The notes under the pieces: generated by a model | The model's database searches: none | Told to the model about the DNA's origin: nothing | Seen by the model: only the letters and a program-made list of their open reading frames with translations | Source of the DNA: Planctomycetaceae bacterium | GTDB taxonomy: Bacteria; Planctomycetota; Planctomycetia; Pirellulales; UBA1268 | NCBI GenBank assembly: GCA_947459185.1 | Contig: CANHCU010000001.1 | Location: forward strand, 14,463 to 78,462 | Direction of reading: 5' to 3' | DNA: 64,000 nucleotides | Position numbers and translations under genes: made by a program | Shown here: positions 2,355 through 62,366 of the stretch, one piece after another | Layout: each line of letters starts with the position of its first letter | How positions within the stretch are numbered: position 1 is the first letter of the stretch

Positions 2355-4670
2355 TCAGACCTTCGGAAAGACGACCAGGCCCTTGGCGGTGTTCAGCAGG
2401 TTGCGGGTGTTGCGGAACCATGTCGTGTAGCAGACGCCGGAACCGGTGCAGATGCCCAGGGCTTGGACACCGACCTGGTTGTACTGCACGATGTTGCCGA
2501 GGGCAGCGTTGTTGGCGACGCCAAAGAGGAAGTTCGTGGCGTTGATGAGCACCGCGCCGGTTTTGCTCGCCGTGAGTGTGTTCCGATAGAAGCCTGTGCC
2601 AGTTGAGTGGCCTGCCGCCCAGAGCCCGTTGCCCTGCGCCGCGGTGAGCGTGTTCCCGAAGCCCGCCGTTGAGCCCCCGACCGTCAGTCCGGTGGCGTTT
2701 TCCAGAACCATCGCGTTGCCACCCAGGGCACTGGCCGAGAAGATGTTGCCGGCGATCGTGGTGTTGGTCATCGTTCCGGCGGCGTAGAGGCCATGCACCG
2801 TGGAGGCGACGTAATTGCCCGCGCCATTACCAACCGTGGTGGCGGCCCCCCCCACGAAGAACGGCGTTGCCGAAGACGCTCCGGTCGCGTTGATCATCTG
2901 AATCCCGGTCGTCTGGCCGGTGATGGCATTGCCCGAGATCACCGAACTGGAGAGGTTGCCCACGGCCCGCACGCCGGTGGTGCCGCCGGCGATGGTGTTG
3001 CCGCCGCCGGCAGTTGCGCTGCCAAGGGACAGCCCCTGGGCATCGAGCAACGACACGCCCAGCGGATTGCCGGTCAGCGAATTGCCCTGAAACGTAGTGC
3101 CGGTGAGGGTGCCGGTGGCGAGCAGGCCGATTGTCTTGCTGCCGCTGATTGTGTTCTTGGAGGCGGTCGTCAGGCCGCCCACCGTCAGGTTGCTGGCGTC
3201 GGTGAGGTTGATGCCGATGCCGTTGCCGCGGATCGTGTTGCCGACGATCGTGGTGGAAGTGTAGTCGGCTTTCGAGCCGGCGATGCCGGAGCCGACATTG
3301 TCGGCAATGACGTTCGGTTCAGCGGTGGCGGTGCCACCGAGGGCGAATCCGGTCATCTTCTGTCCCGACGTTGCCAGGAAGTGAACGCCGTGTCGGCCGT
3401 TGGTCTGGATGACGTTCCCCTGGAGCGTGGTCGTGCTGAAGACTCCGGAGTTGAGGAGGACGCCGTCCATCTCGTTGCCCTGGATCGTGTTGCCGAGGTT
3501 CGGCCCGCCGACGAGCAGACCGGCGAACGCCGCGCCGCCACCCTGCAAGTTGATGCTCAGGCCGTTCGATGCGTTGTACTGGATTGCGTTGCCTTGGATG
3601 GTCGTGCCGGTGTAGGTGCCGCCGAAGGCGGCGAGGCCGTCGGCTCCGTTGCCCTGGAGAATGTTGCCCTGCCCGCTCTTGCCCACCGCGAGATTGGTGA
3701 GCGTCCTGCCCGCCGGCGCGAGTTCGATGCCATGGCGGCTGTTGCCGGAGATCAGGTTGCCGACGATGCTCGTGCCGGTGTAATCCCCCTGCGTCACGAG
3801 CACGCCGTTGGACGAGTTGGACTGGATGGAGTTCGCGGCGCTGGATGTCGCGCCACCGATCTGCAGGGCCGTGATGCCGCCACTTGTGGCGGTGAACGAG
3901 ATTCCGTCGCTCGTGTTTTGGAGGATCGAGTTTCCCTGGACGACGGTGTTTGTGTAGCTGCCAGAGCGGAACGCCAGGCCGTCGCCGTTATAGGCGAAGA
4001 GGTTTTGGGCGGCGGTCGTGGTGCCGCCGATCGTCAGGCCGGTGACGCCCCCGGCTGCGAGGAGGCCGTTGGACGAATTGGCGGTGATCGTGTTGCCGGA
4101 GATGACCGATCCGGTCATCGTGCCGCCCACTAGTTCGATCCCGTTGGTGTTGGCCGTCAGCGTCAGGCCGTTGATCGTGGAGCCGGTCGAACCACCCAGA
4201 AACCGCAGGCCGCTGTCGAAGCCCGTGAGCGTGAGGTTGAGCCCGTTCATCACGATCCCGTTGGCGCCGTTGGCGAACGCAAGGCCGTCGGCCGCCGACG
4301 TCGCCCCGCCGTCGAGCGTGATCGCGTTCGTGCCGGAGAATAAGAACGTCGTCCCGGCCGTATTCGTGATCGTCGGCAGGGCCGTGGCGAGCGCGATCGT
4401 GCCGACGGCCAAATTCTGAAACGTGATCGTGTTGGCGGTTCCAGCATAGGTGGTGTTCACATCGAGGATGGCCTGCCGCAGCGAACCGGTCCCGGCGTCG
4501 GCCAACGTCGTGACGTTGACGACGGCCAGCGCAAGCCGGGCCTCGAGCGATTCAAACGGGGCAAGTCGTGTCTGGCTCTGGCGTTGAGGGGCCGCGGGAC
4601 GAACGCGATTTCCGGAGACTCGTGTGATTCGACGGAACAACGTCTGGATGTTGGTACGGCTGCGGCTCAT
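2355..4670 (-). CDS. secreted right-handed beta-helix (PbH1) repeat protein
   Basis: The ORF runs 2355..4739, but I prefer the ATG at 4670 (MSRSRTNIQ...). It contains over 20 tandem units of about 22-25 aa of the type (I/V)xGNx(I/L)xxNxxxG(I/L). The Arg-rich N-terminus ends in FESLEARLALAV. Confidence 0.75.
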   Translation of the reverse strand: MSRSRTNIQTLFRRITRVSGNRVRPAAPQRQSQTRLAPFESLEARLALAVVNVTTLADAGTGSLRQAILDVNTTYAGTANTITFQNLAVGTIALATALPTITNTAGTTFLFSGTNAITLDGGATSAADGLAFANGANGIVMNGLNLTLTGFDSGLRFLGGSTGSTINGLTLTANTNGIELVGGTMTGSVISGNTITANSSNGLLAAGGVTGLTIGGTTTAAQNLFAYNGDGLAFRSGSYTNTVVQGNSILQNTSDGISFTATSGGITALQIGGATSSAANSIQSNSSNGVLVTQGDYTGTSIVGNLISGNSRHGIELAPAGRTLTNLAVGKSGQGNILQGNGADGLAAFGGTYTGTTIQGNAIQYNASNGLSINLQGGGAAFAGLLVGGPNLGNTIQGNEMDGVLLNSGVFSTTTLQGNVIQTNGRHGVHFLATSGQKMTGFALGGTATAEPNVIADNVGSGIAGSKADYTSTTIVGNTIRGNGIGINLTDASNLTVGGLTTASKNTISGSKTIGLLATGTLTGTTFQGNSLTGNPLGVSLLDAQGLSLGSATAGGGNTIAGGTTGVRAVGNLSSSVISGNAITGQTTGIQMINATGASSATPFFVGGAATTVGNGAGNYVASTVHGLYAAGTMTNTTIAGNIFSASALGGNAMVLENATGLTVGGSTAGFGNTLTAAQGNGLWAAGHSTGTGFYRNTLTASKTGAVLINATNFLFGVANNAALGNIVQYNQVGVQALGICTGSGVCYTTWFRNTRNLLNTAKGLVVFPKV

Positions 4671-8269: not shown

Positions 8270-8299
8270 CGGCTTGGCCGTCAGCGTGATGGGCGCCGG

Positions 8300-8435
8300 A
8301 TTCCCTTGCTTGCGCTGCGGGCTTGGATGAATGATCCCGGTTCCATGCAAGCCCGAAGCGCAAGCGAGAGGAAACCGCGACCTGTTGCCGTGAGGCCACC
8401 CGCGATTCCCTTGCTCGCGCTGCGGGCTTGGATGG
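8300..8435. repeat. intergenic palindromic repeat locus A (type1 +, type2 inverted, type1 +)
   Basis: ATTCCCTTGCTTGCGCTGCGGGCTTGGATG at 8300-8329, CCATGCAAGCCCGAAGCGCAAGCGAGAGGAA at 8343-8373 and ATTCCCTTGCTCGCGCTGCGGGCTTGGATGG at 8405-8435. The locus lies between the convergent gmd and lnt genes. Confidence 0.9.
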
Positions 8436-8445
8436 GGACGGGCTT

Positions 8446-10056
8446 CTATGGGACGGGTGTCCCGCGTGCTGTCTTGAGACGTCGCCGCACGCTTGCGAGG
8501 GCGATGGCGATCGCCAGCCCGCCGCAGACGACCGGAAAGGCTTGGCCGATCCGGCTGGCCAGCGTGCGGGTGTTGATCAGGGGCACCTCGGCGACGAGCA
8601 CGTCCTCCACATGGAGCGGCAGCCGCGCGGGGATGGTGCCCAGCGGCGAGACGACGCAGGTCTCGCCCGTTGCCGCGCACCGCAGCAGGCAGCGGCGGTT
8701 TTCCACGGCCCGCAACTGCGCGAGCAGGCGGTGCTGGAGGAGCGTAAGGGTCGCCTTGAACGACGAGCCATTGATCAGCGAGAGCAGCACATTGGCCCCA
8801 TTGTCGGCAAGCGATTCGGCGGCGCTTGGCACCATGTCTTCGTAGCAGAGCATCACGCCCAGCTTTGCCTTGTCGCCAAGCGCCAGCACGGTCGCCGCCG
8901 GACCGACATCGAGGTCGTCGTCCATCGGAAAGTAGTGCCGCAGTTCGGGCATGAACGCAGTGCCCGGGACATATTCGCCAAACGGCATCAGATGCCGCTT
9001 GTGGTAGCAGCCGATGATCTGCTCGGCATCGTCAACGAGGATCGCGGACTGGTAGAGGTCGTTGGGCCGTTCGGGATAGCCGCTGTAGATCTTGCCGCCA
9101 AACAGGAGCGGACAGGCAGGATCGGCCAGCGGCCGCAAGCCCCGCTGCGGTTCCCGCGACTCCGCAAAGATCCGCTCGGGATCGTTGAAGGCGGGGAGCT
9201 TTTCCGAGTAGGAGCCGCCGCTACATTCCGGCCAGCAGATCAGGTCGAAGGGCCTGTCGCGGCCGGCGCATGCCTCCCTCGAGAAACGCTGGAGGTCGTC
9301 GATCGAATCGTCACGGCTGGGATCGACCTGCACGAGCGCCACGCTGAGCTTCGGCGCCGCGGCCATCTGGGCCGACCAGAACTGCATCGCCCATGCGCCG
9401 TAGGCGAGGTTGGCCAGGCAGACCACGACCGCGGCCACGCCCGCTGCCGTCCAGGCCGGGCCGACCGCCGCGTGCCCGCGACGCCAACGGCGGAGCATCT
9501 CCACCACCAGCACGATCACGCCGGCATGGGCATAGAGCACGAAGGTGGCAGCCTCCGGGCCGAGTAGATCGACCGATTGCACGAGCACGGGCCAGGCGAT
9601 CTGGCTGTAGCCGAGTTTCCAGGGAAAGACGCTCGTGACGAAGGCCTCGGTCGCGACGGCGACGAGTGCCGCCGGGAGCCAGGCATTGCGAGGATCGGCG
9701 ACCGTGCGACTGACAAACCAAAAGGGCAGCGACAGCCGCAGGGCATCCCAGAGCACGATCGGCACGGTGAAGGCCAGGCCGATCCCGTAGCTCGACTGGA
9801 TCGCGTCGGCGAGCACGGTGGGTGACCAGTGAAACGCCGTGGCCAGGCTCGTCGCCGCCACGGCCAGCACGAGCGTTTCGCCCCGCCAGCCGCGGAGCGC
9901 GGGGAGACAGACAAGCGCAGCCGCCACACCCAGCCATTCACAGGGCACGAGGTCCTGCCAGAGCCACGGGGTCGCGATCAGCATCGCGATCACCGCCGCC
10001 CCCAGGGCATCCGCCCACCAGGCGGTCTCCGCTCGTTGCCGCTCGAAAACATTCAT
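8446..10056 (-). CDS. lnt: apolipoprotein N-acyltransferase
   Basis: A polytopic N-terminal membrane domain is followed by a CN-hydrolase domain with the E/K/C triad context (ICWPE, HKRHLMPFGEY, VMLCYED). Confidence 0.9.
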   Translation of the reverse strand: MNVFERQRAETAWWADALGAAVIAMLIATPWLWQDLVPCEWLGVAAALVCLPALRGWRGETLVLAVAATSLATAFHWSPTVLADAIQSSYGIGLAFTVPIVLWDALRLSLPFWFVSRTVADPRNAWLPAALVAVATEAFVTSVFPWKLGYSQIAWPVLVQSVDLLGPEAATFVLYAHAGVIVLVVEMLRRWRRGHAAVGPAWTAAGVAAVVVCLANLAYGAWAMQFWSAQMAAAPKLSVALVQVDPSRDDSIDDLQRFSREACAGRDRPFDLICWPECSGGSYSEKLPAFNDPERIFAESREPQRGLRPLADPACPLLFGGKIYSGYPERPNDLYQSAILVDDAEQIIGCYHKRHLMPFGEYVPGTAFMPELRHYFPMDDDLDVGPAATVLALGDKAKLGVMLCYEDMVPSAAESLADNGANVLLSLINGSSFKATLTLLQHRLLAQLRAVENRRCLLRCAATGETCVVSPLGTIPARLPLHVEDVLVAEVPLINTRTLASRIGQAFPVVCGGLAIAIALASVRRRLKTARGTPVP

Positions 10057-15719: not shown

Positions 15720-15922
15720 TCGATGACGGGGCGGTTCGGCCGCCCCTCCGGTGATGCGCCGCTCTTGCCGGCCAAGCGTCGGGCAAGCAGCACGCAGTGT
15801 GCCTGCTCCCGATTCGAGCGGCTCGTCACCGGCGGGGCGGTCGGCTCGGCACCACAGGTGCCGGCGCCCCCGTATTCCCGCGATTTCCATGATTACGCTG
15901 CGGGCGTCGATGGGCGGCATTC

Positions 15923-16012
15923 TCATGCAAGCCCGACGCGCGAGCGAGGGAATCCGCGTCACTTCCTCGTAACGCCCCGGCATTCCCTTGCTTGCGCTGC
16001 GGGCTTGGATGG
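15923..16012. repeat. intergenic palindromic repeat locus B (type2 inverted, type1 +)
   Basis: TCATGCAAGCCCGACGCGCGAGCGAGGGAAT at 15923-15953 and ATTCCCTTGCTTGCGCTGCGGGCTTGGATGG at 15982-16012, upstream of ffh. Confidence 0.9.
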
Positions 16013-16076
16013 AACCGGAAAAACGCTTCCGCCCCCGGTATACTCTCGGCTCACGTTTTCCCTTCACGGAGCCGCC

Positions 16077-19941: not shown

Positions 19942-19988
19942 CATCCAAGCCCGCTCTCTATCCAAGCCCGCAGCGCAAGCAAGGGAAT
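19942..19988. repeat. intergenic repeat locus D (type1 unit in reverse orientation plus partial)
   Basis: Partial CATCCAAGCCCGC at 19942-19954 and TATCCAAGCCCGCAGCGCAAGCAAGGGAAT at 19959-19988, between the convergent yraN and AAA ATPase genes. Confidence 0.85.
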
Positions 19989-20020
19989 ACGGATGGCCTG
20001 CACAACCCGTCCCCATTTTC

Positions 20021-21444: not shown

Positions 21445-21774
21445 ATGTCTTGGTTGTACCTGATGATCGCGATCGTGGCCGAAGTGGTTGGCACGAGCTT
21501 TTTGCGGGCCTCGCAGGGGTTCACCAAACCGCTGCCCAGCGTCATGGTGGTGCTCGGCTACGGACTGGCGTTCTTCTTTCTGTCGCTGACGCTCAAGGAC
21601 ATTCCGGTGGGGATCGCCTATGCGGTCTGGAGCGGCGCGGGGGTGACGCTGATCGCCGCAATCGGCTGGCTCTTTCTGGGGCAGAAGCTTGACGCCGCGG
21701 CGATCCTCGGCATGTCGCTGATCATCGCCGGCGTCGTCGTGCTCAACCTGTTTTCGAAGGCTGGCGGTCACTGA
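21445..21774 (+). CDS. small multidrug resistance (SMR/EmrE-type) transporter
   Basis: 109 aa with four TM segments. [23 protein letters not shown] carries the conserved membrane-embedded Glu. [10 protein letters not shown] motif is present. Confidence 0.85.
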
Positions 21775-21808
21775 GACGGCTCGCGCATGATCCGCGATAT
21801 CGTCCCGC

Positions 21809-22010
21809 ATTCCCTTGCTTGCGCTGCGGGCTTGGATGGAGAGCGGGTTCCCATGCAAGCCCGAAGCGCAAGCGAGAGGAATCCGCATGGCATTCCCGTG
21901 AGGCAATCCGCATTCCCTTGCTTGCGCTGCGGGCTTGGATGGAGAGCGGGCTTGGATGAGGACGGGGCTTGGGTGGAGAGCGGGCTTGGATGAGGACGGG
22001 GCTTGGATGG
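21809..22010. repeat. intergenic palindromic repeat locus E (type1 +, type2 inverted, type1 +, then 34-bp x2 tail)
   Basis: Units at 21809-21839, 21851-21882 and 21912-21942. A tandem GGAGAGCGGGCTTGGATGAGGACGGGGCTTGG(G/A)T follows at 21941-21974 and 21975-22008. The locus lies between the convergent SMR and TauE genes. Confidence 0.9.
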
Positions 22011-22026
22011 AGCGCGGGCCGTTCGA

Positions 22027-22794
22027 TCACAATCCCAGCGGCCGGCCGAGCAGCTTCATGCTCGCAAACGCGAGCACGGCCGCCATCAGCAGCCGCAGGA
22101 TTCGCGCCGGCAGGCGGAACGCACCGAAGTGCGAACCGATCACGCCGCCGACTGCCGCGGCCGCGATCACGGGCAGGCCGGCGGCCGGAAACGGGCGACC
22201 GGCGAGCAGGCCGCCACTCAGGCCCGCGAGCGAATTGACGAGAATGAAGGGCGCCGTCACGGCGGCGATGGTCTTCACCGGCGCCGCACCAACCGCCAGC
22301 AGCGCCGGCGTCAGAAACACGCCACCACCCACCCCCGTGAGCCCCGACAAGAGTCCGACGCCGCCGCCGAGTGCTCCCAGCACCGCGGGCGTGAGCCAGG
22401 GCCTCGCCGGCATGGTTGGCGAAATCGTATCGTGGTCGGAAGCCGGCCGCCGGGCATCGAGCAGCATCCGCACCGCCGACACGAGCAACACGCCGCCGAG
22501 CACCGCCTCGAACGCGACTGTGGGCAGCGTGAGCGTGCCGCCGATAAACGCGCAAGGCACGCTCGCCAGGGCCAGCGGCCAGAAGAGCCGGGGACTGAAG
22601 TGACCGGCGCGGATGAATTGGACGCTCGCGATCGTCGCCACGATCACGTTGAGCGACAGTGCCGTCGGCCGAATCACCGCGGCTGGCATGCCCAGGAGCG
22701 TCATCACTGCGATGTAACCCGTCGCCCCGGCATGCCCTACCGAGGCATAGAGCAGGGCAACGAGTCCGATCGCCAAGGGCAGGATCGCGTGCAT
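22027..22794 (-). CDS. TauE/SafE family sulfite/anion exporter
   Basis: 255 aa, polytopic. LLYASVGHAGATGYIAVMTLLG and the internally duplicated 4-TM architecture are typical of TauE/SafE. Confidence 0.8.
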   Translation of the reverse strand: MHAILPLAIGLVALLYASVGHAGATGYIAVMTLLGMPAAVIRPTALSLNVIVATIASVQFIRAGHFSPRLFWPLALASVPCAFIGGTLTLPTVAFEAVLGGVLLVSAVRMLLDARRPASDHDTISPTMPARPWLTPAVLGALGGGVGLLSGLTGVGGGVFLTPALLAVGAAPVKTIAAVTAPFILVNSLAGLSGGLLAGRPFPAAGLPVIAAAAVGGVIGSHFGAFRLPARILRLLMAAVLAFASMKLLGRPLGL

Positions 22795-23945: not shown

Positions 23946-24140
23946 ATTTCCCTTTCTTGCGCTGCGGGCTTGGATGAAGAACGATCCCATACAAGCCCGA
24001 AGCGCAAGCGAGAGGAATCCGCGTCGCATTTCTGCAAGGCCACGTTTATCCCCTTTCTTGCGCTGCGGGCTTGGATGAAGAAGGCGGGCATGGATGAGGA
24101 GGGGGCATGGATGCCCGTCTGGTTCCCCATGCAAGCCCTG
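23946..24140. repeat. intergenic palindromic repeat locus F (type1 +, type2 inverted, type1 +, degenerate tail)
   Basis: Units at 23946-23977, 23987-24018 and 24048-24078, GGGCATGGATG iterations at about 24086-24112, and a partial type2 unit at 24125-24140. The locus lies between miaE and the P-type ATPase. Confidence 0.9.
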
Positions 24141-40989: not shown

Positions 40990-41016
40990 GACGGCCGACC
41001 TGTATCCCCCGGCTCG

Positions 41017-41242
41017 CGCCGGGGGCTTGTATGGGATGTCATGCGAGCGCGAAGCGTGCGCCGGGGGCTTGTATGGGATGTCGTGCGAGCGCGAAGCGTG
41101 CGCCGGGGGCTTGTATGGGATGTCGTGCGAGCGCGAAGCGTGCGCCGGGGGCTTGCATGGGATGTCGTGCGAGCGCGAAGCGTGCGCCGGTGGTTTGTAT
41201 GGGGTGTGCATGCAAGCCCTGAGCGCGAGCGACGGGATTCCC
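41017..41242. repeat. 42-bp tandem repeat array (4 near-identical copies plus 1 diverged), derived from the interspersed repeat family (locus H)
   Basis: CGCCGGGGGCTTGTATGGGATGTC(A/G)TGCGAGCGCGAAGCGTG at 41017-41058, 41059-41100, 41101-41142 and 41143-41184. A diverged copy ending in a type2-like unit (TGCATGCAAGCCCTGAGCGCGAGCGACGGGATTCC) occupies 41185-41242. Confidence 0.9.
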
Positions 41243-41272: not shown

Positions 41273-42445
41273 TTAGCGGGCCGCTGGCAACGCTGCCGCG
41301 TCGAGGGCCTGTTTGAGCATGCCGGGGTTTTGCCGTCCGATCCGCTCGAGTTCCTGTCGTGCAGCGGGAAGCGGGCAGGCTGCGAGATATCCGGCCACGG
41401 CGCGGCGGATGAGTGGGTCGTCGGTTCCGAGCGTGTCCCAGAGCCGGGAGACATCGGCCACCGTCTCCCAGGCCTGATACCGGGCCAGATCGACCGTGGC
41501 ATCGGCCGCCACGGCGGGGCTTGCCAGCAGGGCTGCCGTCGCGGCAATGATCCGCTCCCGCGGGATCGCCTCGGTGAGGCTTTCTCCGGCAAATCGCACC
41601 GCGGCGAGCAGATGGCGCTGATCGAGGGCCCGCGCTTCCCGGCCAAACAGGCCGCGGCGCTCGAGAGAATCGAGGCCGGCCTGCCCCTCCGCCACGAGCA
41701 CCCCCGCCAGAACTCCATCGAATCCAGCACGAAAATCGTCGGCGGGAGCCTCGACGGCCCGATGCAGGGCGTCGAGGCAGTCTCGTGCCACCGCGGGATC
41801 GTCCGTGGTGGCGGCGGCCACTCCCAGTAAGAGTCCATAGAGCCCGCGGCGGCGGGCGTCGATCCCCGGCTCGCTCACCCAGGCCCGGAGCCGGGCCGGG
41901 TCGAGCCCGCTCGCTGCAGCACGCACGGCGGTGAACGGCGACAGGCCAAACTCCGTGAACGCATCGGCGGCGATCGCCGGATCGGGGTGCTCCAATCGGG
42001 CGGCGAACCATCGCAGCCGCTCGGCCGCCGGGAGCGTGATCGCCGGTGCGGCCGTCACATAGCCCAGAAGCGATTCGTCGGCCGCGACCGCCGACCAGGA
42101 GCGACCATTTCCCGCGGCCTGTGGGCCTGCCGCCATGACCGTGCCAAAGAGCACGGCTGTTCCGGCGATCGGCCCGGCCACGCGGGCCGGCACGGTCTCG
42201 CCGGCGACGGCGGCGTGGGCCGTGTCGCGGAGCACTTGGTCGATGCGAAATCGCTGTGCGAGAAAACCGCTCGCATCTGGCGCTGCCGTACCCTCCGCTT
42301 CAGCGACCGCCACGGCGTCCGCCGCGTCGCGCCGCTGCGCGAGCGACTGCCCAACCGTGCCGCAGAACGGGCATGCCGATGCCAGCGGCACGGCCAGCAC
42401 GATCACGAGGAACGCGGCCAGGATGGCCGAGCCCGACGTGAACAC
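41273..42445 (-). CDS. exported CPFC-motif helical-repeat protein (paralogue of 46739..48409)
   Basis: GTG 42445 gives (M)FTSGSAILAAFLVIVLAVPLASACPFCG. It aligns with the 46739 protein along its length (RLEHPDPAIAADAFTEFG / HLEDPDETLARDAYDEFA; DLARYQAW / DLARWQDW; YLAACPLP / YLRACPLP). The upstream part of the ORF reads through repeat units. Confidence 0.55.
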   Translation of the reverse strand: MFTSGSAILAAFLVIVLAVPLASACPFCGTVGQSLAQRRDAADAVAVAEAEGTAAPDASGFLAQRFRIDQVLRDTAHAAVAGETVPARVAGPIAGTAVLFGTVMAAGPQAAGNGRSWSAVAADESLLGYVTAAPAITLPAAERLRWFAARLEHPDPAIAADAFTEFGLSPFTAVRAAASGLDPARLRAWVSEPGIDARRRGLYGLLLGVAAATTDDPAVARDCLDALHRAVEAPADDFRAGFDGVLAGVLVAEGQAGLDSLERRGLFGREARALDQRHLLAAVRFAGESLTEAIPRERIIAATAALLASPAVAADATVDLARYQAWETVADVSRLWDTLGTDDPLIRRAVAGYLAACPLPAARQELERIGRQNPGMLKQALDAAALPAAR

Positions 42446-42447
42446 GG

Positions 42448-42518
42448 ATTCCCTCGCTCGCGCTTCGGGCTTGCATGGGAGCCCAGTTGCATCCAAGCCC
42501 GCAGCGCACGCAAGGGAG
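42448..42518. repeat. intergenic palindromic repeat locus I (type2 +, type1 inverted)
   Basis: ATTCCCTCGCTCGCGCTTCGGGCTTGCATGG at 42448-42478 and CATCCAAGCCCGCAGCGCACGCAAGGGAG at 42490-42518. Confidence 0.9.
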
Positions 42519-42564
42519 ATGCACGAGTGCGCACGTCGCGTGCCGAACACTCCCGCCGCCGGCC

Positions 42565-56772: not shown

Positions 56773-56783
56773 CGGGCGGAAAC

Positions 56784-56856
56784 GTCCCTCGCTTGCGCGT
56801 CGGGCTTGGATGGGAGCTGGGCGGATTCCCTCGCTTGCGCGTCGGGCTTGGATGGG
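56784..56856. repeat. intergenic repeat locus J (two direct type1-variant units, 41-nt period)
   Basis: GTCCCTCGCTTGCGCGTCGGGCTTGGATGGG at 56784-56814 and ATTCCCTCGCTTGCGCGTCGGGCTTGGATGGG at 56825-56856, between the convergent FHA gene and the 56884 gene. Confidence 0.9.
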
Positions 56857-56883
56857 AGCGACGCGGCTTCTGCGCTCGTCGGT

Positions 56884-61533: not shown

Positions 61534-61601
61534 TTCGCCGCCCGAAGCCATCGGGGGATGCGGACGAGGCTTCCGCAGCGAGTGGTGTGATGCCACATTC
61601 G

Positions 61602-61632
61602 ATTCCCTTGCTTGCGCTGCGGGCTTGGATGG
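61602..61632. repeat. intergenic repeat locus K (single type1 unit)
   Basis: ATTCCCTTGCTTGCGCTGCGGGCTTGGATGG lies about 70 nt after the stop of the 60688 gene. Confidence 0.9.
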
Positions 61633-61874
61633 ATAGGCGGGCTCGTTCTTGAGTCTGCTTTCGCGGGCGGCGGAACCGCTGTCCTGCGAACAGGCCGTAC
61701 CACAGCCCCGCGCTGCACAATGCGTCCAGTCGGTGTCTGCCAGAGTGCGGCCAAGAAAGTCTGCCTGACCGGACGATGTTTCCCTTGTCGCAAAGTCAGC
61801 CAGCTCGACTCAGATCTCGCAGGACCGCGGTCAGTCAGGAAACCGCGCGGGAGCGGATCGTGGCCGAAGCAAGG

Positions 61875-62310: not shown

Positions 62311-62366
62311 TGTATCGCCCAAGTTGTATCGCCCAAGTTGTATCGCACAAGTTGTATCGCACAGGG
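62311..62366. repeat. 14-nt tandem repeat x4
   Basis: TGTATCGCCCAAGT x2, then TGTATCGCACAAGT, then TGTATCGCACAGGG. The array ends 36 nt upstream of the GTG of the 62402 gene. Confidence 0.85.

Follow-up and report, generated by a model that had tools for sequence, protein, structure and literature searches.

A repeated inverted module in a Pirellulales genome is probably part of a BIME-like repeat array linked to a class 3 TnpA_Y1 gene

Background

Three loci in a 64,000-nt stretch of DNA from a bacterium of the order Pirellulales (hereafter, the window) carry the same composite module: a unit of type A, a short loop, an inverted unit of type B, a linker of 29-31 nt, and a second A unit in the orientation of the first. 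As the central B unit is complementary to both A units, a transcript of the module could fold into either of two mutually exclusive hairpins. A previous sequence-only reading of the window described this topology as switch- or attenuator-like, took the whole ~135-nt module as the repeated entity, and suggested either a structured RNA family or a MITE-like mobile module. What, then, is the module: a regulatory RNA, a mobile element, or a part of something larger?

Head-to-head and tail-to-tail REP dimers and clusters have been described in general (Di Nocera et al. 2013; PMC3733652). Quentin et al. 2018 (BMC Genomics 19:475; PMC6006769) described a small and rare 'class 3' of TnpA_Y1 proteins, whose hosts are mainly Planctomycetes, Acidobacteria, and Proteobacteria. 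The class 3 proteins are ~178 aa long, with the motifs NHVH, W[TA], and YV[VI][AENY]EQ (Y----Q) and an extended N-terminal conservation, and their genes are bordered by weak structures of an atypical kind, with CnGA as the 5' foot, that reach up to ~600 copies (PMC6006769). According to these authors, class 3 is 'reminiscent of a REPtron' and may represent an intermediate form between IS200 and RAYTs (PMC6006769).

Methods

The window is contained in a Pirellulales MAG (G000) of 4.09 Mb in 226 contigs, with a G+C content of 65.6%. For the census, units were located with the pattern GCGC-N3-GGGCTTG-N-ATG, with one mismatch allowed per block. Genes were called with a crude GC3-based caller at several thresholds, of which a stringent one covered 56% of the genome and the one used covers 80%. 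In the covariation test, partner arms were scored for identity, equivalent to Watson-Crick pairing within the hairpin, and compared with shuffled partners in 62 tail-to-tail and 45 head-to-head A/B pairs.

Results

Repeat units in the window

The common order A(+), short loop, B(-), linker, A(+) was confirmed at 8300-8434, 21809-21941, and 23946-24077. The partial copies were also found much as they had been reported, namely the right two-thirds of the module at 15879-16020 and the hairpin of opposite orientation at 42444-42520 (Table 1). The focal array at 21809 is located between the convergent SMR (+) and TauE (-) genes. The iterated tails noted at 21941-22008 and at about 24086-24112 are real, with TRF periods of 17 and 19, respectively; the focal tail (21929-22019) can alternatively be described with a period of 34 (x2.6, 94% matches, TRF), and the tails of the 8300 and 23946 arrays extend over 8423-8457 (period 16, x2.2) and 24065-24113 (period 19, x2.7). 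A 20-mer core of the units occurs 17 times in the window with up to 3 mismatches, against 0.02 occurrences expected.

The tandem array at 41016-41207 belongs to a second REP family (GATCCCCCGGCTTGCGCCGGGGGCTT.TATG, with a perfect 8-bp palindrome) and is cognate to a second class 3 gene on contig C196. Two further repetitive features were observed in the window. A 14-nt tandem at 62311-62360 (TGTATCGCCCAAGT, x3.6, 97% matches) is unrelated to the REP family. An internally repetitive coding sequence at about 2700-4100, read on the minus strand (direct-repeat families D5, D6, D8, and D10), is probably a gene for a large repeat-rich (beta-helix-like) protein.

Table 1. Repeat units and arrays in the window, and the two Y1 genes of the same genome
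Feature	Position	Strand	Remarks
Unit A1 (type 1), ATTCCCTTGCTTGCGCTGCGGGCTTGGATG	21809..21838	+	identical to A2 over 43 nt (100%, direct-repeat family D1)
Loop, 13 nt; tail-to-tail junction joining the 3' ends of A1 and inverted B	21839..21851	+	
Unit B (type 2), inverted	21852..21882	-	
Linker, 29 nt; head-to-head junction joining the 5' ends of B and A2	21883..21911	+	
Unit A2 (type 1)	21912..21941	+	
Tail, 17-nt tandem x5.4: last 11 nt of unit A (GGGCTTGGATG) plus 6 nt	21929..22019	+	TRF
Second array, A><B A>, with 16-nt tail	8300..8457	+	GDP-mannose dehydratase gene (+) / CN_hydrolase gene (-)
Third array, A><H A>, with 19-nt tail	23946..24113	+	miaE (+) / P-type ATPase gene (+)
Degenerate A, then <F, linker, A> array	15879..16020	+	FA junction at C1 30385
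Tail-to-tail doublet of opposite orientation: B-type unit (+), then A-type unit (-)	42444..42520	+	
Lone A unit, inverted, with one tail iteration	19956..19989	-	
Two direct units of the GTC/G variant, 42 nt apart	56779..56863	+	
Lone A unit	61598..61640	+	
C-type units in direct orientation	41016..41207	+	42-nt tandem x4.6, 96% matches (TRF)
Class 3-like Y1 gene, P0001, 170 aa	G000 C69:7794-8306		
Paralogous Y1 gene, 51% identical to P0001	G000:C196:2305-2796		bracketed by its own C/D family

Units and arrays in the genome

With the census pattern, we found ~558 units of ~31 nt in the genome, including a sister family (C/D/E); depending on the pattern used, the count ranged from 346 to 558. 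Unit A is GCGC-TGC-GGGCTTGGATG, and B and its relatives are GCGC-TTC/GTC-GGGCTTG-C/G/T-ATG. The fixed differences of B from A are TTC for TGC, GCATG for GGATG, and one extra base. Subtype A (TGC/G) has 140 copies, B (TTC/C) has 58, and the sister family has ~180; the subtypes F, G, H, and I are close to B. The unit consensus does not contain GTAG, that is, it has no conserved 5' GT[AG]G tetranucleotide. On the opposite strand beside the core, B-type units have CCGA and A units have CCGC. The C unit of the sister family forms a perfect 8-bp palindrome, CCCCCGGC-TTGC-GCCGGGGG.

The units are arranged in 288 clusters, of which 122 are singlets, 103 doublets, 35 triplets, and 19 quadruplets, and the largest has 7 units. 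Orientation within the clusters alternates strictly, and the period of the arrays is 99-105 nt. Further copies of the composite thus exist, as the 35 triplets show, and either phase is found among them (A><B A> and <B A><B). What is repeated is not the ~135-nt triplet as such, which represents one length and phase among alternating arrays of 1-7 units.

At the head-to-head junction (a linker of ~30 nt), the core-to-core spacing is 52-61 nt, with a mode of 54-55. The similarity of the linkers of the three loci, which had been taken to unite them, survives only partly when more copies are compared: the length is tightly kept, and the sequence at the center is moderately conserved (consensus ..CCGCGTtgCATtcCCGTgAgGCcaCCCGC..). 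Loops at the tail-to-tail junction are 10-15 nt, about 22-32 nt, or about 45 nt long, and they lengthen by 16-17 nt with each iteration of GGGCTTGGATG plus 6 nt; most of the loops of 27-31 nt hold one extra iteration of the 11-mer. The genome has 152 orphan copies of this 11-mer (GGGCTTGGATG), about 45 of which lie 15-19 nt from another copy.

The identity between A units was 0.742 within arrays and 0.715 between arrays, a difference that was not significant (p = 0.27), and 4 of 18 within-array pairs reached 0.86 or more. Judging from their sequences, some arrays clearly appear to have grown by recent local duplication; the A units at 21809 and 21912 are identical, and so are the array periods on contig C131. 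At contig ends of the assembly, we observed 44 of the 288 clusters. As the repeats fragment MAG assemblies, the unit copy numbers are lower bounds.

Location and borders of the clusters

With the gene caller that covers 80% of the genome, 13.6% of the units were located inside called coding sequences and ~86% outside them. Among 213 placed clusters, 96 were in convergent, 88 in tandem, and 29 in divergent gaps, compared with 391, 1128, and 376, respectively, for all 1895 intergenic gaps. The clusters therefore preferentially occupy convergent gaps (45% of those placed). No excess of direct words was found in the flanking 14-mers (3.43 vs 3.46 +/- 0.06 with shuffled partners), so the module borders show no target-site duplication. 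Reading the sequence at the three arrays of the window, we saw no T-runs following the hairpins.

Folding and covariation

Whole modules were predicted to fold at -31 to -41 kcal/mol (z = -2.9 to -5.1), with the hairpin of A and inverted B dominating. A single A unit gave -4.1 kcal/mol (z = -0.57), and single A and B units appear to be poor palindromes. Two alternative hairpins per module are possible, as had been proposed: both helices are thermodynamically feasible, and the ensemble is split between them. Owing to the differences between A and B, the stem has a bulge and conserved mismatches of the G.A and G.G kinds.

Neither helix of the composites showed compensatory changes between its two arms. 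The number of identical cells was 1358 in the 62 tail-to-tail pairs, against 1360.2 +/- 3.1 with shuffled partners, and 1006 in the 45 head-to-head pairs, against 1008.7 +/- 2.5. At the most variable position of the stem, the observed pairing was 0.44 and the expected pairing 0.46. The arms are thus complementary because both belong to one sequence family, and not because of selection on either helix; likewise, the choice between two hairpins arises from the geometry of units in alternating orientation and is not a selected switch. At the gathering threshold, Rfam matched only a tRNA in the whole window. A permissive Rfam scan of 21700-22100 gave sub-threshold look-alikes of eukaryotic miRNA and snoRNA hairpins, which we treated as noise.

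A Y1 gene bracketed by the units

A search of the genome with Pfam Y1_Tnp gave two borderline matches, on contigs C69 and C196 (Table 1). The gene on C69 encodes P0001. On its upstream side are A> and a diverged <B, and on its downstream side <x-linker-A> ... <B, with the same type of linker as in the modules of the window. A search for exact inverted repeats around this gene found none, because the A and B types differ. Two paralogous genes, each in its own repeat family, are the REPtron pattern of 'one enzyme, one repeat family'.

The score of P0001 was 21.9 bits against Pfam Y1_Tnp, narrowly below the cut-off of 23; it was 25.2 bits against the NCBIfam model of IS200 (NF033573; cut-off 55) and 21.8 bits against that of RAYT (NF047646; cut-off 80). 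In an alignment of 22 sequences, H95-V96-H97, Y160, and Q165 are invariant. The residue preceding HVH is N in 11 of the 22 proteins and Q, T, or K in the rest, with Q in P0001. The tyrosine motif of P0001 is YVTECQ, and no NP follows the tyrosine. The N-terminal block FFLTWTTYGSWLPGD.RGW is invariant or nearly so, and the homologues are 151-185 aa long. The AlphaFold (AF2) model of P0001 had a pLDDT of 90.7, and the top 30 Foldseek matches to the model were all TnpA proteins of IS200, IS608, or ISDra2 or the E. coli RAYT 4er8, with E-values of 1e-5 to 3e-4 against 2xm3, 2vjv, 2f4f, and 4er8 and nothing else below 0.02. A profile search of PDB sequences agreed weakly with this placement among TnpA and RAYT proteins. 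On the strength of the model, P0001 is predicted to have the HUH/Y1 endonuclease fold.

The gene on C69 lies between msrB and argF in G000, G004, and G011, in the last two of which we found its orthologues; in G004, the class 3 gene is split over two contigs. The shared synteny indicates a single-copy, vertically inherited gene, like a RAYT gene and unlike an IS. No ORF of the size of tnpB adjoins the P0001 gene. We considered and rejected two more familiar assignments. P0001 is not a canonical class 2 RAYT, as it scores 21.8 against a cut-off of 80 and lacks the YxxxNP motif. Its gene is not an IS200/IS605 insertion sequence, as the score is 25.2 against 55, there are only two paralogues, 51% identical, the gene is syntenic, and no ORF of tnpB size is next to it.

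Distribution and polymorphism within the genus

The A core was present in 14 of 19 genomes of the same genus, in 0-306 copies per genome. Outside the genus, it was nearly absent, with one match (1 mismatch) in the 21 genomes searched. The genomes with a P0001 orthologue (81-100% identical) had the most copies (182 in G000, 293 in G004, and 306 in G011). Several other members of the genus had tens of units and no detected orthologue in their incomplete MAGs. That copy number tracks the presence of the orthologue is suggestive only, as it is based on three related genomes, and the MAGs are incomplete.

In agreement with the idea of a mobile or dynamic element, presence, absence, and array length were polymorphic at all three orthologous sites of sister genomes. 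At site 21809, G011 has an array with a near-identical linker and fewer tail iterations, G002 and G017 have empty gaps of 20-25 nt, G001, G010, and G014 have 40-60 nt without the repeat, and other species have unrelated palindromic elements or a C/D pair. At site 8300, an orthologous array with extra tails is present in G004, the site is empty in G003 (18 nt), and a different small palindrome is found in G015 and G011. At site 23946, one A unit is found in G004 and G011, which is exactly one period of ~101 nt fewer; G015 and G003 have no unit, and none of the other genomes has the triplet. These differences show that units are gained and lost, that arrays change by whole periods, and that tails change by steps of 16-17 nt.

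Other palindromes occupy the convergent gaps of sister genomes that correspond to ~21790-22020 (loci L083, L086, and L088 in G015, G007, and G012) and ~8270-8450 (L097 and L099 in G015 and G011). One of them is (G)GGCAAGTT-(GAAA/AAAA/TTCA)-AACTTGCC(C), in one or two copies, and another is an inverted repeat of ~130 nt, GGGGCTGCCCATGCCCCGTCGCCGGACGTTCGC...GGGGCATGGGCAGCCCC. For several repeat families, both gaps are hot spots of insertion.

Some of the related loci (L014, L019, L055, and L013; CAMCQY01, CAMDDA01, and CAYSPN01) come from MAGs labelled 'Candidatus Kuenenia'. The sequences of L013, L014, and L055 are 83-96% identical to the high-G+C genome G000, and its other close relatives are labelled Pirellulales; the labels on these MAGs look like misassignments.

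A core conserved across Planctomycetota

A 16-nt core, GCTTGCGC-N3-GGGCT, adjoins homologues of P0001 in 33 of 51 loci from Planctomycetota (L013-L063), with 114 matches near the homologues and 0 for the reversed control. The homologues beside the core are 38-54% identical to P0001 and belong to Pirellulales, Planctomycetales, Isosphaeraceae, and Phycisphaerae, and the gene usually has an inverted pair of cores on either side. Of five distant genomes, four carry dispersed copies of the core as well (matches/control, 399/35, 117/27, 104/16, and 87/21); in the fifth, it had 57 matches against 49 for the control. TGC and TTC units also alternate in one Pirellulaceae MAG. Such conservation across a phylum is unusual for REP sequences, which as a rule turn over far more rapidly.

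Discussion

The observations above make it very probable that the module consists of three successive units of a BIME-like array, which belongs to a REP/BIME-like family that forms a REPtron with a class 3 TnpA_Y1 gene. Three other explanations were weighed. In the first of these, the module is a cis-regulatory RNA of the attenuator or riboswitch kind, toggling between the A1:B and B:A2 helices. This view has largely been refuted already, and we see next to no chance that it is correct, even though both helices are feasible with an ensemble divided between them, and the module at 23946 is found upstream of the co-directional P-type ATPase gene. The other two modules lie between convergent genes and thus cannot be 5' leaders, and 45% of the placed clusters are in such gaps; arrays occur at all lengths between 1 and 7 units and start in either phase; and arm identity equals the shuffled expectation in the 62 + 45 pairs. 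The stem keeps its G.A and G.G mismatches and its bulge, no Rfam family matches at threshold, and close relatives that retain both flanking genes have no module at the orthologous site. Location, lack of covariation, mismatches, and the Rfam result speak in the same way against a structured RNA family. The MITE-like mobile module suggested in the previous reading was right insofar as the elements are high-copy, intergenic, polymorphic, and non-autonomous, and wrong as to kind, since they lack target-site duplications, have an HUH Y1 partner gene, and resemble REPs, BIMEs, and REPINs. Classical MITEs, that is, deletion derivatives of a DDE-transposase IS with TIRs and target-site duplications, are a very improbable explanation. 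In favor of MITEs, the modules are short, non-coding, high in copy number, and polymorphic for presence and absence, and the outer arms are inverted in doublets. In triplets, the outer arms are direct; moreover, array length varies, no signal of target-site duplication was found, and no DDE IS with these ends was seen, the HUH/Y1 enzyme gene being the sole type of gene bracketed by the units.

It is improbable, though less so than the two preceding explanations, that the units are host-selected elements of gene 3' ends (terminators, mRNA-stabilizing hairpins, or protein-binding sites) spread by recombination and duplication only, with the Y1 gene being incidental. The strong enrichment of clusters downstream of genes, in convergent gaps, the stability of the long GC-rich hairpin, and the evident local duplication (the A units at 21809/21912, identical over 43 nt, and the identical periods of C131) would all suit such a role, and E. 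coli REPs are established to act so (reviewed in PMC6006769). This view leaves unexplained how the units came to occupy about 288 unlinked sites that share no flanking homology, why each Y1 paralogue lies inside its own repeat family, and why the core is found beside homologous genes across a phylum, in 33 of 51 loci with 0 control matches; in addition, the hairpins are not followed by T-runs. A secondary function for the host is in any case compatible with the REP/BIME explanation and not an alternative to it.

Judged by sequence motifs, length, and flanking structures, P0001 and its relatives appear to fit class 3 TnpA_Y1. Shared features are the planctomycete host, a protein of ~170 aa with (N/Q)HVH and Y-x4-Q (YV.E.Q), the W-T/S motif and extended N-terminal conservation of the P0001 family, and a single- or low-copy gene flanked by several weak 'atypical' structures, of which there are hundreds of copies. 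A CCGA foot is found on the B-, F-, G-, H-, and I-type units, and flanking and dispersed units carry CCGA(A/C)GCGC. The dominant A unit, in contrast, has CCGC and not CnGA, and P0001 departs from the class consensus in two motifs (QHVH for NHVH and WS for W[TA]). The alternating unit types, the fixed linker, the 17-nt tails, and the dynamics of the arrays are not described in PMC6006769.

The system is also similar to the BIMEs of E. coli (Y and Z REPs with defined linker motifs) and the REPINs and RAYTs of Pseudomonas, in that two alternating inverted units are joined by characteristic junctions, the repeats are extragenic at gene 3' ends without target-site duplication, the repeats flank their cognate Y1 gene, which exists in one copy and is inherited vertically, and the family and its copy number are genus-specific. 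It differs from them in that the units lack the GTAG tag, A and B individually do not appear to be good palindromes, P0001 is not a class 2 RAYT and has Y-x4-Q instead of YxxxNP, and the core is kept across the phylum rather than turning over between genera. With IS200/IS605 elements and PATEs, the system shares the HUH/Y1 fold (the best Foldseek matches are the TnpA proteins of ISDra2, IS608, and a Sulfolobus IS200), the class 1-like Y-x4-Q, and the lack of target-site duplication. Unlike in those elements, the P0001 gene is not multicopy and keeps the same chromosomal context in three species, the repeats far outnumber the gene and form arrays, and no adjoining tnpB was seen.

As for the mechanism of the REP/BIME-like family, P0001 would, by analogy with the TnpA of IS200/IS605 and TnpA-REP of E. 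coli, bind single-stranded unit DNA and cleave and rejoin it. This action would seed or expand copies without target duplication, and copies would persist mainly downstream of genes, where harm is small. Slippage, unequal exchange, or local duplication would add or remove tails and periods, and any use by the host, e.g., as 3'-end hairpins, would be secondary. The A and B units differ exactly at the position of the 5' foot of Quentin et al. (CCGC vs CCGA). We tentatively raise, as a rather unlikely extension, the idea that the A and B units are counterparts of the left and right ends of IS200/IS605, that <B-linker-A>, the head-to-head doublet of fixed length, is the minimal single-stranded unit excised and reinserted in trans by the class 3 enzyme, and that the system is a living intermediate on the way from IS to domesticated REP/RAYT systems, with a recognition core frozen across the phylum.

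Conclusions

The regulatory-RNA candidacy of the module fails, which removes a false lead. The link of the repeat family to a class 3 gene is added knowledge, of a kind that is known but poorly characterized. The repeats also break MAG assemblies. Class 3 TnpA_Y1 systems, which have been sparsely described, gain a detailed anatomy, with two alternating unit types, a head-to-head linker of fixed length, 17-nt tails that can expand, two paralogous enzymes with their own repeat families, interspecies polymorphism, and a core found from Pirellulales to Phycisphaerae. With graded copy numbers (0 to ~300) and the gene either present or absent, the genus is a natural test bed for the idea that class 3 is an intermediate.
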